From: Octopus vulgaris
Lineage: Eukaryota
Direction of reading: 5' to 3'
Length of the DNA stretch: 64,000 nt
NCBI GenBank assembly: GCA_951406725.2
Contig: OX597837.1
Location: 19,840,001-19,904,000 of the forward strand
Shown in pieces: positions 6,229 to 56,458 of this stretch. The notes below the pieces were generated by a model. The model saw only the letters and a program-made list of their open reading frames with translations. It was not told where the DNA came from and made no database searches. Position numbers and translations under genes: made by a program. Each line of letters opens with the position of its first letter. Within the stretch, counting starts at the first letter, position 1.

Positions 6229-6720
6229 GAAGTGTTATCATGTACATTGTTTTGTCTTGGTATAATAATAATAGCAAATATTCTGCTCAATAATAGATTT
6301 GCTTGTCAGTTGTTTGGCCTTAACCAGTTGAGCATGTCCCTTAGTGGCTGACGATATGTGCATTTCTGATCACGAGCAGAAGTAGTGGGGGAGCATCATG
6401 GCCATGTGTTGAGAGGGATTCTTTGGGGTTTGAATAATTCACCTCTGGAAACATAGGTGTTTCGTTCAACATCTTAAAGCAACCCTTATTCAGGGACCTT
6501 TGAGCAGGATGGACTACTCAACCTGAAGAAAATTCTAACTGGGCCCCACCTGCAAGGTCATGTGCTGTTTATCTTGATGTGAGATCACCATGTCGCGCAC
6601 ATATGGTTGTGATGCATGTGCCTGGTGTGCCTTTATCAGACGGGTAGTCATGATGGGTATATTGGGCTTCGTATATTTTACCCCAGTGTCACTTTGATGG
6701 CATGAACTGCTCTCTCACTC
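6229..6720 (+). mobile_element. ~550-bp (TAA)n-associated non-autonomous element, 5'-truncated copy
   Basis: High similarity to the other copies; ends CTGCTCTCTCACTC followed by (AAT)n. Confidence 0.9.
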
Positions 6721-6985
6721 AATAATAATAATAATAATAATAATAATAATAATAATAATAATAATGAATGATAATAATAATAATAATAATAATAATAATA
6801 ATAATAATAATAATAATAATAATAATAATAATAATAATAATAATAATAATAATAATAATAATAATAATAATAATAATAATAATAATAATAATAATGATAA
6901 TAATAATAAAAATAATAATAATAATAATAATAATAATAATAATAATAATAATAATAATAATAATAATAATAATAATAATAATAAA

Positions 6986-7274
6986 GTTTGAATAATTCAC
7001 CTCTGAAACATGGGTGTTTCGTTCAACGTCCTTAAACAACCCTATTCAGGGACCTTTTGAGCGGATGGGTTACTCGATCTGAAGAAAATTCTAACTGGAC
7101 TCCACCTGCAAGGTCATGTGCTGTTTATCTTGATATGAGATCACCATGTCGCGCACATATGGTTGTGATGCATGTGCCTGGTGTACTTATCAGACGGGTA
7201 GTCATGATGGGTATACTGGGCTTCGTATATTTTACCCCAGTGTCACTTTGATGGCATGCTCTGCTCGCTCACTC
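6986..7274 (+). mobile_element. (TAA)n-associated element, 5'-truncated copy (3' half)
   Basis: Starts GTTTGAATAATTCACC, same 3' end, (AAT)n on both sides. Confidence 0.9.
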
Positions 7275-7291
7275 AATAATAATAATAATAA

Positions 7292-7818
7292 ATGCCCTGA
7301 TGCAGTACCAGACAGTGGCTCTCATGGCTTTTGATGTGAACCGAGCGGAAGTGTTAACATGTACATTATTTTATCATGGTATAAAAGATGGGCTACAGCA
7401 AATATTCTGTTTGACTTTAACCAGTTGAGCATGGTCCTTGGTGGCTGACGATATGTGCATCTCTGATCACGAGCAAAAGTAGTTAGGGAGCATCATAGCC
7501 GTGTGTTGAGAGGAAGTCTTTGGAGTTTGGATAATTCACCTTTGGAAACATGGGTGTTTCGTTGAACATCCTTAAACAACCCTTAATCAAGGAGCTTTGA
7601 GCGGGATGGGCTATTCGACCAAAATAAATTTCTAACTGGGTCCCACCTGCAAGGTTATGCGCTGTTTATCTTGATATGAGATCACCATGTCACGCACGTA
7701 TGGTTGTGATGCATGTGCCTGGTGTACCCTCATCAGACGGGTAGTCATGACTGGTATACTGGGCTTCGTATATTTTACCCCAGTGTCACTTTGATGACAT
7801 GCACTGCCCCTCTCACTC
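7292..7818 (+). mobile_element. (TAA)n-associated element, near full-length copy
   Basis: ATGCCCTGATGCAGTACCAG...TCTCACTC flanked by (AAT)n. Confidence 0.9.
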
Positions 7819-8890
7819 AATAATAATAATAATAATAATAATAATAATAATAATAATAATAATAATAATAATAATAATAATAATAATAATAATAATAATA
7901 ATAATAATAGTAATAATAATGATAATTTTTTGCATCACATCTATGAGGAGGACAATCATAATAATATTCGTCTTCATTCCATATCATCATTATCATCACG
8001 TTCCTCTTTCTCCTCCTCCCCTTCTTCCTCCTCATCATCATCAACAATCGTCTTGATAATTATGACGATCATCATCTGCAGCAGCAGCAGCAGCGGTGAC
8101 GGCAGCAGCATTGGCAGCAGCAGCAGCAGCAGCAACATCATGACCATCATCATGATCAGCATAATTCCCATGATCATCATCACCATTGAAGTTAGCATCA
8201 TCTTCAACACATTGGCCCCCTTTCCCACCACGACCACGACCACCACCACCACCACCACCACTTTGCCTCACCTTTAGTATATGTTTTTTCTTTCATGCTC
8301 CCCACCCTCACCCCGAACCCCAACATCCACCCACTCATCCATCTTACGGTAAAGGACCGTCTATCTCCGTTACAGTGTTTTGTTATCCATTCTCAGCAGC
8401 AGTCGTCACGAAGTTCGAAAAACCACATTGGGTAGGTTGTTGTTGTTGTTGCTGTTGTACAACAAACATGGCGTAGATTGGAGGGAGATTCAAGGAAGAG
8501 ATGAACGCAGATAGAAAGAGAGAAGAAAAAGGGGGGAGAAAGGCAGAGCAACAAGGAGAGAGAGAGAGAGAGAGAGAGAGAGAGAGAGAGAGAGAGAGAG
8601 GTGGGGATATCGGCGCTCAGCCTGTGTCCTGCCGTTGGTTGTCTTTCTTCCGAGATACATAACGACGATTTCTTGATATTTATCAACACACGACCTCCTT
8701 TGCGAAAATCCATTTATTCTAGTCGATAGCATCAATACTATTTAATACCAGCCAAGGAATCTTCTGCTTTAAATCGTTCCCCCACCTCAACCAAACACCG
8801 GTTCATACATGAAGTATACCATAATCCGAACACGAGCCGAGGAGAGGCGGTGGGGCAGGGTGAGGAGCTGAGGTGGGGGTGGGGGGCTCA

Positions 8891-9097
8891 GGAAGAAGGA
8901 GAAGAAGAAGAAGAAGAAGAAGAAGAAGAAGAAGAAGAAGAAGAAGAAGGAGAAGAAGAAGAAGAAGAAGAAGAAGGAGAAGAAGAAGAAGAAGAAGAAG
9001 AAGAAGAAGAAGAAGAAGAAGAAGAAGGAGAAGAAGAAGAAGAAGAAGAAGAAGAAGAAGAAGAAGAAGAAGAAGAAGAAGAAGAAGAAGAAGAAGA
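8891..9097. repeat. (GAA)n polypurine microsatellite with GGA interruptions
   Basis: Directly visible. Confidence 0.95.
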
Positions 9098-53500: not shown

Positions 53501-54382
53501 ATAAGTGACACTCCTTTCAGATACAAACACACACACACACACACATACACACACACATGCGCGCACATATACACACACTCTCACAAGACAATGATAAAAG
53601 GAAATCTGGACAATTTTTCGAAAAGTGACATATTGCTTCCCTTGGAGAAAACAGCTGGATTTGCCATTACTAAAAGCCAAGAATGGATTATTATTGACAA
53701 CCTGACCAGCTGCAAAGAGATCAACAATTTTTTTTTTTCTCTCCCTTTTCTTCCTTTCCTTCTTTTTCTTTAACACCCCTTCCATATACAAACACACACA
53801 CACACACATGCTATCTCTCACTTTCTCCCCATTCATCACCCTCTTGTACTATTTTAAATCTCTCTCCACCACTACACACTCAATAATACTATAAAAAGAG
53901 TCAAAATTCCTGCAAAAACTTAGTTCAATTTGAAGACTCCGCTAGAATGGACGAAAGCACTGTATATATATGATATATGATATATGATGTATAAAAACAT
54001 GTCACATACTAATAAATATCTATAAGTATAAAACCATCCGGATTTCTGAGTACCTCATTTCTTCTAATATATATATATATATATATATATTATATATATA
54101 TATATATATATTTTTATTTTATTATATTTTTTTTTATAATATAATATTATTATATAATTTTTTTTTTTTTTTGTATATATATATATATATATATATATAT
54201 ATATATATATATATATTATATATTATATATATATATATATATAATTATTAAATTCATATAAATACAACAAAACACCATATATATATTTTTTTATAAATTT
54301 TATTTATATATATATATATATATATATATATATATATATATATATATATATATATATATATATATATATATATATATATATA

Positions 54383-54535
54383 CGACGGGTTTCTTTCAGT
54401 TTCCTTCTACCATATCTACTCACAAGGCTTTGGTCAGCGGTCTGAGGCTATATTAGAAGACACTTGCCCAAAGTGTTACGCAGTGGGACTGAACCCGGAA
54501 GCATGTGGTTAGGAAGCAAGCTTCTTACCACACAG
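54383..54535 (-). mobile_element. SINE family A, 5' half
   Basis: CGACGGGTTTCTTTCAGTTTCC...GCAGTGGGACTGAACCCGGAAGCATGTGG...CTTACCACACAG. Confidence 0.8.
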
Positions 54536-55641
54536 TGTGCACCAAAATATTTACACCAAAACTTCATTGCAAGTATAAAGAAAAACAATAACAAAAGCCA
54601 TGGAACAACTCTGATATTGTGCAATTTGGGGGTCTCAGAATGGGTGACCACGTGGAAGCACTATCATAGGCTCGTTAAAGATGTGCTATGTTTCAGGAAA
54701 TTGTGTTTCGTTGCAAAGCGGCCATGTTAATCTTTGCTTTTTGTTATCCTTTTTATTTGTGGGGATCATTCCTTATACTGCCAAGACGTCTGGTGGTAGG
54801 GGCATCTTTTAAGCGTTGAAAATGATAGCGATAGTAGCGGTGGTAGTAGAGGTGTTGATGGTGTTGTTGTTGGTGGTGGTGGTGATAGTGGTGATGGTGG
54901 ACCTACAGTTGCATGTTATAAAAATATAAGAATTGCGGCGGTGTTGTTGTTGGTGGTGGTTGTGGTAACGGTGACGTTAGCAGCAATGCAGCAGGAACAG
55001 CAACAGGGACAGCAGCAGCAGCAGCAGTAGTAGTAGTAGTAGTAGTAGTAGTAGTAGTAGTAGCAGCAGCAGCAGCAGCAGCAGCAGCAGCAGTAGTAGT
55101 AGTAGTAGTAGTAGTAGTAGTAGTAGTAGTAGTAGTAGTAGTAGTAGTGTAGCAGCAACAGCAGCAACAACTCAGTAGTAGTAGCAGAATAAGGAGGAGG
55201 AGGAGGAGGAGGAGGAGAGGGAATTTTTGGTATTGTTGTTACAGTGATGGTGGCGTTTCTGTTTTATCGATGGCTGTAATAATTGCTTATCTCAAACCAC
55301 TAATGTACACTACAGAGTTTCTATTTCCACTGCTCGTATTATTATTACCGCTGAATTTGATGATGATTATGATGACGATGATGATGATTGTAGTAGTGGT
55401 GGTGGTGGTGATAGTGGCATTGCTGTTGTTGCTGTTGTTGTTGCTGTCGTAGTTGGAAAGAAACAATCAACATTTATCCATCTGATCAAAGACGGTGTCT
55501 GGCTGTAAACAACCATTGTTTATCAACATAAACAACAGCTGTACACTAAAACAAACCGGCGACACTGTTTACTTACATAACTTAATAATAATAATAATAA
55601 TAATAATAATAATAATAATAATAATAATAATAATAATAATA

Positions 55642-55843
55642 ATGCTTTCAAATTTTGGCGCAAGGACCGCAATTTGCGGAGTGGGTGTAAGTCGATTGCA
55701 TCAAATGGTGCTTATTTTATCGATCCCATAAAGATGAAAGAAAAAGTCGACTTCGGCGGAATTTGAACTCAAAATCTGAAGACAGACGAAATGCTGCTAA
55801 GCACTCTGCCCGGGGCGCTAAAGATTCTCCCAACTCACTGCCT
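55642..55843 (-). mobile_element. SINE family B
   Basis: TTTCAAATTTTGGCGCAAGG...AAAGTCGACTTCGGCGGAATTTGAACTC. Confidence 0.8.
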
Positions 55844-56004
55844 TAATAATAACAACAACAACAACAACAACAACAACAACAACAACAATAATAATAATAA
55901 TAATAATAATAATAATAATAATAATAATAATAATAATGATAATGATAATAATAATAATAATAATAATAATAATAATAATAATAATAATAATAATAATAAT
56001 AATA

Positions 56005-56458
56005 ATGCCCTGATGCAGTACCAGGCAGTGGCACTCGTGGCTTCTGATCTTGACTGATTGGAAGTGTTATCATGTACATTGTTTTGTCTTGGTAAAAAAA
56101 AGACTGACGATATGTGCATCTCTGATCATGAGCAGAAGTAGTCGGGAGCATCATAGACATGTGTTGAGAGGGATTCTTTGGGGTTTGAATAATTGAAACA
56201 TGGGTGTTTCGCCTAAAATCCTTAAAAATCTTTATTCAGGGACGTTTTGATCAGGATGGGTTACTCGACCAGAAGAAAATTCTAACTGGGCCCTACCTGC
56301 AAAGTCATGCGCTGTTTACCTTGATATGAGATGACCATGTCGCGCACATATGGTTGTGATGCATGTGCCTGGTGTACCCTTATCAGACGGGTAGTCATGA
56401 TGGGCTTCGTATATTTTACCCCAGTGTCACTTTGATGGCATGCACTGCTCTCTCACTC
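56005..56458 (+). mobile_element. (TAA)n-associated element, internally deleted copy
   Basis: Both termini intact, deletion near 56100, (AAT)n flanks. Confidence 0.9.

Follow-up and report, generated by a model that had tools for sequence, protein, structure and literature searches.

A high-copy, non-coding repeat of octopus TAA microsatellites, a likely non-autonomous partner of Dong retrotransposons

A repeat family with a consensus of 556 nt, non-coding and resident in the TAA microsatellites of the octopus genome, is likely a non-autonomous retroposon that is copied in trans by the reverse transcriptase (RT)-endonuclease of Dong (R4-type) LINEs. The family was recognised in a 64-kb stretch of Octopus vulgaris DNA (contig OX597837.1, positions 19,840,001–19,904,000; the window), where a first-pass annotation had counted about 11 copies and proposed that they hijack a Dong-type RT-endonuclease. 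Ten of these copies form one family; the sequence at 15270 was rejected as a copy, being a TIR-bearing MITE that has only element positions 103–272 in common. Several observations support the proposed hijack: the target and its polarity, overlapping ages, stutters at 5' ends, a template jump to a tRNA, and junctions between element and Dong.

The element family and its copies in the window

A 17-mer near the element's 3' end occurs 16,219 times genome-wide (reversed control, 0), which sets the copy number at 16,219 as a minimum; the total is probably 20,000–60,000 copies, and the element makes up ~0.7% of the 2.8-Gb genome. Copies diverge by 0.5–16%, with young and old copies both present, and the youngest are 99% identical to the consensus. 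Copies are locally concentrated in the window: 10 with a 3' end lie in its 64 kb, compared with 19 3' ends in 940 kb of spaced stretches and three in the 200 kb adjoining it. The features of the window are:

6229–6720, + strand: element copy, 5'-truncated (consensus 56–556), TAA/GAA 5' flank, TAA 3' flank
6985–7274, + strand: element copy, 5'-truncated (262–556), TAA both sides
7292–7818, + strand: full-length element copy, 29-bp internal deletion, ~9% diverged
~15060–15531, + strand: MITE of a 492-bp family, ~115-bp imperfect TIRs, TTA/TAA target duplication; left limit approximate
20870–21419, + strand: full-length element copy; its insertion site is the short TAA tail that follows an older 3' fragment (20549–20859) of the Dong-A lineage
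22269–22281, + strand: possible 3' tip of the element, with TAA after it, within a GIY-YIG-like fragment; uncertain and of only 13 nt
22589–23142, + strand: full-length element copy
27051–27777, - strand: Dong-A LINE, 5'-truncated, RLE C-terminus at 27151–27699 and 3'-UTR hairpin at 27085–27124; TAA both sides, polarity the same as that of the element
30449–30996, - strand: full-length element copy, youngest in the window (1.5% from consensus), TAA both sides
30497–30536, - strand: 3' hairpin (element 460–499), candidate Dong recognition signal
30725–30893, - strand: segment in common with the MITE interior (element 103–272)
33262–33728, - strand: old element copy with ~12% substitutions; 5' truncation near position 97, 5' flank other than TAA
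47517–47555, - strand: Dong 3'-UTR hairpin, covariance-model match (E 2e-6), outside the training set
47759–48313, - strand: full-length element copy
48496–48714, - strand: element copy, 5'-truncated (338–556), TAA both sides
56005–56458, + strand: element copy with both full-length ends, internal deletion (~98–181)

RTE LINE sequence also lies in the window, at 43293–47240.

As first described, the copies in the window have a common 3' end followed by AATAAT and range from full-length to 5'-truncated (starting at consensus 56, 262 and 338). A 3' end that stays constant while 5' truncation varies is the pattern of a non-autonomous non-LTR retroposon, and the first base of the element is fixed as well. 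Neither TIRs nor LTR-type end repeats were found in the element and its longest ATG ORF is of 50 aa, leaving it without protein-coding capacity; on both TIRs and ORFs the earlier reading holds, and of the pol III boxes, none of which had seemed convincing, absence of the B box is confirmed. An AATAAA or ATTAAA signal is likewise absent from the element, which holds three internal TTTT runs. Any target-site duplication is unreadable inside TAA repeats.

The 492-bp MITE family has the TIRs and the fixed short target-site duplication that are absent from the element. Element positions 103–272 correspond to ~15244–15421 of the MITE, and the two consensuses agree at 164 of 170 bases. Capture of this segment from the element by a TWA-duplicating MITE, rather than the reverse, is the likelier course of events; a proto-element without 103–272 gave 0 exact pattern matches, and a proto-MITE with another interior was found at none of 27 TIR loci (examined of 30, three duplicates being left out). 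The 170 bp in common could also be taken to mean that the element itself spreads as DNA, as a MITE, as a Helitron or by gene conversion between TAA arrays. We regard this as extremely improbable given the lack of TIRs, the graded 5' truncation with a fixed 3' end, whose polarity already contradicts it, and a tRNA fused at one 5' end. Repeat maskers will confuse the element with the MITE, as did the first-pass annotation.

Target, polarity and the Dong partner

Dependence on Dong/R4 predicts insertion in (TAA)n with Dong polarity, and this is what was found. Among element copies not chosen for TAA, the 3' flank was TAA-like in Dong polarity in 46 of 49 and the 5' flank was TAA-like in 32 of 48; the opposite polarity was seen in one of 49, against a background TAA rate of 0.6%. 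Dong-A LINEs had TAA at 28 of 29 3' ends and 35 of 50 5' ends, while an abundant tRNA-like SINE, used as the control, had it at only 12 of 87 tested ends. Element 3' junctions were letter-identical in 77 of 112. Both the TAA bias and the orientation bias persist beyond the window; within it, the single polarity claimed for intact-ended copies was confirmed, although the copy at 33262 is without TAA on its 5' side.

LINEs with an RLE are called Dong here on the basis of target and domain order, without direct comparison with the Bombyx sequence. The genome contains an intact RT–RLE ORF of 1242 aa (L061), whose best solved relatives are R2 proteins and of which at least 150 copies are identical over 182 aa. 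Divergence in the Dong-A lineage is 0.8–15%, overlapping the range of the element, and an active partner of overlapping age, as expected under Dong/R4 dependence, is present.

Some element 5' ends carry tandem stutters of the first 18–131 nt of the element. Because these begin at its first base without intervening TAA, we conclude that the element RNA has a fixed 5' end. Exact element heads number 7,228, only 300 of them with three non-A bases upstream; at 21 places sampled from those 300, BLAST found head pieces in eight and no longer common parent upstream of the head was seen. At one of these places a tRNA-Glu is fused to the element's 5' end, four bases before the first ATG, an arrangement comparable to the template jumps to tRNA at R2 5' ends described in PMC3414825. 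A Dong-A-lineage 5' end (L228) bears the same kind of stutter, and the element's stutters may be read as a record of enzyme behaviour at the template end. Together, stutters and tRNA fusion give indirect support for an RNA intermediate.

Three direct junctions between element and Dong, without TAA, were also found: L256, L280 (family B) and L035 (family I). Deletion between neighbouring elements could also have produced these chimeras, whose partner families, B and I, differ from the most active Dong family, A. An alternative is that a non-Dong LINE making (AAT)n tails mobilises the element and that the 5' TAA reflects clustering in microsatellites; this would fit the presence and activity of RTE and other LINEs (window; PMC13282606 Table 1) and the lack of a sequence tie between element and Dong. 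We nevertheless consider it very unlikely: TAA of a single polarity precedes the 5'-truncated copies too, the control SINE is without such flanks, the stutter is common to the element and a Dong 5' end, and the three direct junctions were sought and found with Dong (among LINEs, the search library covered Dong).

In three unstranded raw-read RNA runs, 5,500–7,310 reads of ~12 million each came from the element, which shows RNA containing the repeat and not a discrete transcript; no pile-up of read starts or ends on the element was seen in these unstranded runs, which come from another organism label. If Dong copies the element in trans, transcription of full-length copies would begin at a fixed start and run into downstream TAA; the promoter would probably be internal, with Pol II more likely than Pol III given the three TTTT runs and no B box. 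The Dong protein would bind the element RNA, possibly via a hairpin at 460–499, which is the weakest step; base pairing of the (UAA)n tail to the TTA strand, where this is nicked, would prime cDNA synthesis. The enzyme would often stop early, producing 5' truncation, and on reaching the RNA 5' end could jump to another template, giving rise to head stutters, tRNA fusions and junctions with Dong RNA.

The 3' hairpin and the origin of the element RNA

A covarying 3'-UTR hairpin is common to twelve Dong families. The element hairpin at 460–499 consists of a 9-bp outer stem, a TTA bulge, a 6-bp inner stem and a 5-nt loop; no other 41-mer of the element is as stable (z about -3.5 to -3.7), and pairing is kept in all three common subfamily changes that fall in it. 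Its predicted architecture may resemble that of the Dong hairpin and it could be a Dong recognition signal, both of which we suggest only tentatively. A descriptor with a GG loop matched 8 of 14 Dong families and one place in the element, as well as 5 of 2000 shuffles; it was tuned after the element had been seen, and it fails once a G is required at the start of the inner stem. The Dong-hairpin covariance model scored 3.5 bits on the element (E 2.3), below two chance matches on the other strand, and the minimum free energy structure of the last 97 nt is an alternative fold, not hairpin 460–499. The first candidate hairpin, at 522–539, matched a simple motif (as did 33 of 5000 shuffles) but has no outer stem like that of the Dong hairpin, and was dropped in favour of 460–499.

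The first-pass annotation had remarked that the 3' end of the element is unlike the Dong 3' UTRs in the window, and this can be extended: an element HMM matched none of 168 Dong 3' ends (21 clusters, compared with 51 Dong-R4 families reported in the PMC13282606 supplement). For Dong, across these 168 ends, the consensus is not simply a LINE 3' UTR. The best element–Dong UTR alignment, to family I, had a family-wise p of 0.33; the element head matched none of the three Dong 5' ends with which it was compared; and no RLE remnant was found in the element, a profile of 26 Dong C-termini scoring it at null level.

The 3' 100–280 nt might come from an unsampled Dong family, D/I-like and either rare or extinct, which would make the element a LINE-tailed SINE or SIDE-like, with the same mechanism and a less novel origin. 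We think this rather unlikely. A nominal alignment to the family I UTR (p 9/500), a hairpin architecture as in Dong, a frame +1 upstream that by eye echoes RLE C-terminal words and a sample of under half of the reported Dong families are in keeping with it; it is opposed by the null-level profile score, by the lack of a match to either the family I nucleotide HMM or the D/I HMM, by the family-wise p of 0.33, and by the absence of any LINE-like sequence among the best-supported loose ends that four runs gave for the last 127 nt (642 weaker ones were outside this set). Two specific candidates were rejected, family I as parent because it was not significant and a decayed remnant, in frame +1, of the RLE coding sequence of Dong on its profile score.

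It is conceivable, if doubtful, that the RNA derives from neither a small-RNA gene nor the partner LINE, has its own start site and captures the RLE RT by shape-only mimicry of the Dong hairpin. The same speculative reading would have the hairpin kept in all TAA-targeting Dong families, the element as the first high-copy SINE-like Dong partner and the hairpin as a portable loading signal.

A head derived from 5S rRNA, with positions 1–108 as a degenerate SINE3 head carrying a type 1 Pol III promoter, would be compatible with Dong mobilisation and would explain the fixed start, and when the 5S of this genome is aligned locally to positions 1–130, the top alignment begins with the first base and finishes in a C-box-like match (11 of 14 bases); a start-anchored test gave p 12–58 of 1000 (four gap settings). 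We judge this origin improbable, however, since the unanchored p was 375/1000, nhmmer found no match either way, Rfam 5S was absent at E 10, the distance from the start to the C-box-like motif exceeds that in 5S by 14 nt, there are three internal TTTT runs and old copies are no closer to 5S.

The consensus matched no known RNA family in Rfam. A tRNA-derived head (SINE2) was rejected (none by ARAGORN or Rfam, no B box), as was an HDV ribozyme head (three weak non-canonical folds from a loose descriptor run without a control; none in Rfam); hammerhead and twister words were seen by eye only and had no Rfam match. The earlier label 'SINE/SIDE-like' is supported in the sense of a non-autonomous RNA and is not supported in that of a SIDE, as no HDV-like ribozyme was found and no sequence in common with the Dong ends seen, the three 5' ends included.

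Comparison with known systems

EhLINE1 is an R4-clade element. EhSINE1 of Entamoeba histolytica, thought to use EhLINE1, is described in PMC2996970 as 500–600 bp long, with no ORF, no identified small-RNA precursor and imperfect A/B boxes only; it has ~70 bp of 3' end in common with EhLINE1 and inserts at T-rich sites with no fixed target. Size, lack of an ORF or an identified small-RNA precursor and imperfect boxes are alike in the octopus element, which differs in being without a detectable common tail and confined to TAA in one polarity.

The R2 SIDEs of Drosophila are rare, internally deleted copies that carry an HDV ribozyme at the 5' end and the 3' UTR of the LINE (PMC3414825). Both they and the element are non-autonomous partners of a site-specific RLE retrotransposon with tRNA jumps at 5' ends, whereas the element's ends match no Dong end seen, no ribozyme was found in it and its copies number tens of thousands. 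The LP-SINEs described from gastropods and bivalves, also molluscan, SINE-like and without a tRNA head, are proposed Pol II transcripts whose heads match known LINE 5' UTRs and which have variable TSDs and poly(A) signals (PMC4758252); the element head, in contrast, matches none of three Dong 5' ends and has no AATAAA/ATTAAA.

Dong LINEs of the R4 clade, known as Bombyx Dong, DongAg and DongBg (PMC3812793, PMC3774820) and as octopus Dong-R4 (PMC13282606, PMC9115989), are like the element in TAA target, polarity, AATAAT 3' junction and 5' truncation; the element differs in having no ORF and in that the 5' HDV ribozyme described for Bombyx Dong was not found in it. The 5S-derived SINE3 (PMC10886601) and the octopus tRNA SINEs OK/OR1/OR2 (named in PMC4824008 and PMC4758252) are, like the element, short non-autonomous retroposons; the element has faint 5S-like anchors in its head and no significant 5S or tRNA match. 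A set of 893 recently active unclassified SINE families has been reported (PMC13282606 Table 1), and no paper on the element, a Dong-dependent SINE or a Dong 3'-UTR hairpin was found in the literature searched, which excluded subscription journals, Repbase Reports, Dfam and the PMC13282606 Zenodo library.

Prior partners of site-specific RLE elements have been described as rare internal deletions, as in the R2 SIDEs, whereas the element occupies ~0.7% of a 2.8-Gb genome and is still young. The element, the covarying Dong hairpin and a young intact Dong ORF together provide a test of what an R2-type enzyme requires in order to accept a foreign RNA, which bears on the origins of SINEs and on RNA-templated gene insertion tools.

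Copies, target and polarity of the element

By self-comparison and with a profile HMM, ten element copies that include the 3' end were recovered from the window. The first-pass annotation had listed about 11, of which the copy at 15270 proved to be a separate MITE. A 556-nt consensus was built from 37 full copies. Exact searches of the 2.8-Gb genome gave 16,219 hits for a 17-mer from near the 3' end and 7,228 for a 20-mer from the 5' end (0 for each reversed control), and 94 spaced 10-kb stretches contained 19 3' ends, with the element occupying 0.72% of bases. Straight scaling gives ~57,000 copies; because five of these 19 ends form one cluster, the range was widened to an estimated ~20,000–60,000 genome-wide. 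The element is present under six organism labels in ten studies. Unselected copies diverge by 0.5 to 16%, and the youngest have 99% identity to the consensus.

Among copies not selected by flank, TAA-like sequence lies at 46/49 3' flanks and 32/48 5' flanks (background 0.6%), with opposite-polarity TAA at a single 3' flank (n = 49); several of the 16 exceptions at the 5' flank are internal deletions or later insertions. This bias is specific to the element, since an abundant tRNA-like control SINE has TAA at only 12 of 87 tested ends. The initial claim of a TAA target in one polarity also holds outside the window, in this sample of flanks. The window also contains:

21784–22275 (-): GIY-YIG-like fragment, below cut-off
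33730–34500: DNA-transposon-like sequence flanking the old element copy at 33262
36556–37311 (-): mariner transposase fragment (Transposase_1)
43293–47240 (+): RTE-like LINE of nearly full length, containing endonuclease and RT domains and interrupted by a few stops and frameshifts, unrelated to the element

Dong elements and 3' hairpins

Dong targets TAA (PMC3812793, in excerpt), and 51 Dong-R4 families, 5 of them recently active, are counted in the available part of PMC13282606. Several RLE C-terminal fragments lie inside TAA in the window, with the same polarity as the element. In Dong family A, at least 150 copies share an identical stretch of 182 aa; the family's intact ORF contains RT and a C-terminal endonuclease region, the best solved relatives being R2 proteins. 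Two of the loci fetched from the genome, where TAA arrays gather head-to-tail stacks of Dong families and elements, hold:

L061 2341–6066 (-): intact 1242-aa family A ORF
L062 91–4301: near-complete family F copy

The Dong-A lineage diverges by 0.8–15%, a range similar to that of the element. Together with the same target and polarity and the 5' stutters, tRNA fusion and element–Dong junctions described below, this supports the Dong-type RT-endonuclease partner first suggested, and the element probably depends on Dong.

As had been noted for the window, the 3' end of the element does not match Dong 3' UTRs in sequence: its HMM gave no hit when run against 168 Dong 3' ends, which fall into 21 clusters, similarity to family I was not significant after correction (p 0.33), and a protein profile detected no RLE remnant. 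Twelve otherwise unalignable Dong families have in common a 3'-UTR hairpin 35–70 nt ahead of TAA, comprising an outer stem, a 3-nt bulge whose last base is mostly A, a 6-bp stem with a 5-nt loop, and a further bulge of 1 nt. Instances are:

Window 666–704
Window 27085–27124
Window 47517–47555
Loci L013, L024, L027, L061, L062, L093, L215 and others

Across a hand-picked set of 16 instances, pairing is seen in 83% of cells, against 62% after shuffling, and both sides vary in 9 of the 12 pairs; a covariance model built on this set recovered, within the window, a Dong end on which it had not been trained (E 2e-6). This covarying hairpin, of which no description was found in the literature searched, is likely to be an RT recognition signal.

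Element positions 460–499 correspond to its most stable 41-mer (z -3.5) and have the Dong layout, with three common subfamily changes all preserving pairing. A GG-loop descriptor matches 8/14 Dong families, the element once, and 5/2000 each of shuffles and genomic windows; four settings were tried, one of which (stem starting with G) leaves the element out. Against such a likeness, the Dong covariance model gives the element hairpin 3.5 bits (E 2.3). We tentatively suggest that Dong might recognise the element by this hairpin. A second, weaker Dong-like layout, at 314–353, stands 216 nt away from the 3' end; the words common to both hairpins hint at an old tail duplication.

5' ends, junctions and the head

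Three non-A bases stand directly upstream of only 300 of the 7,228 exact heads. Heads with non-A upstream, fetched at 28 loci representing 21 places, had no common longer parent; eight places carry head pieces (BLAST), one has an element copy truncated at its 3' end, and in one a tRNA-Glu stops four bases ahead of the first ATG. The tRNA-Glu(TTC) retrocopy at L317 (1400–1503) carries a stuttered 5' piece of its own and is joined, within TAA, to the first base of the element. R2 is described as jumping at 5' ends to tRNA and snRNA (PMC3414825, in excerpt).

Stutter units of the head measure 18, 27, 29, 37, ~68 and 85/87 nt, with one 131-nt case, and up to 13 stand in tandem; they start at the first base and no TAA separates the units, so the 5' end of the RNA template is fixed. 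A stutter of the same kind is present at L228, which is one of three near-complete 5' ends from the Dong-A lineage. Five of 217 non-TAA element flanks matched a Dong library, two with TAA between; direct junctions without TAA are:

L256: element with family B
L280: element with family B
L035: element with family I

These three junctions fit template switches, deletions between neighbours being a possible alternative origin.

In organism B RNA the first 138 nt are very commonly duplicated in tandem (L009 1500–1638; read runs X21–X23), with 470–683 reads per run at a depth of ~2000; the source is either a single locus with high expression or a subfamily whose stutter became heritable.

No tRNA, Rfam family, B box or poly(A) signal was found in the consensus, which bears out the tRNA-less description, answers the proposed Rfam search and supports the reported lack of pol III A/B boxes as far as the B box; three TTTT runs are present. 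Bombyx Dong has an HDV ribozyme (PMC3774820, in excerpt); a loose scan of the element gave nothing canonical. Compared with the genome's own 5S, the head reached p 0.01–0.06 only when start-anchored, with no significant match unanchored, and it matched none of three Dong 5' ends. A cluster of 5S rRNA genes, pointing in both orientations, lies at G000:C4:35.2–35.34 Mb. RNA reads from another organism label (unstranded libraries) cover the whole element without pile-up at the ends. Our best guess is that transcription would start from an internal Pol II promoter.

A MITE sharing positions 103–272, and known systems

RNA reads have loose ends at positions 106 and 272 of the element that match the flanks of the 15270 copy, and a search with that copy yielded a separate 492-bp family with ~115-bp imperfect TIRs:

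Window ~15060–15531: MITE of this family, with long imperfect TIRs and a TTA/TAA duplication (further copies, L142–L200)

In 5/8 complete copies the same 3 bp, TTA or TAA, flank both sides, which is the pattern of PIF/Harbinger MITEs; no autonomous parent was found. Element 103–272 matches the MITE interior at 164/170 bases, the shared segment adjoining the right TIR, and at two of the six differing sites the MITE has a decayed CpG where that of the element is intact. Sampled MITE copies all lie at least 5% from their consensus, with no young ones seen, and the segment is already present in the oldest element copies. An exact pattern search found no element form without it, and no MITE form with a different interior occurred among 27 loci. 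From these comparisons between the two families, whose age ranges overlap, we somewhat favour capture of the segment by the MITE from the element. Internal duplications in some MITE copies (L149, L154, L162 and L165) start at the shared-segment boundary.

No description of the element was found in the literature searched, which did not extend to repeat databases. The element would work like EhSINE1 (PMC2996970, in excerpt) and the R2 SIDEs, and resembles LP-SINEs (in the available part of PMC4758252) in being without a small-RNA head, but the sequence tests that define these systems, where run, came out negative for it.
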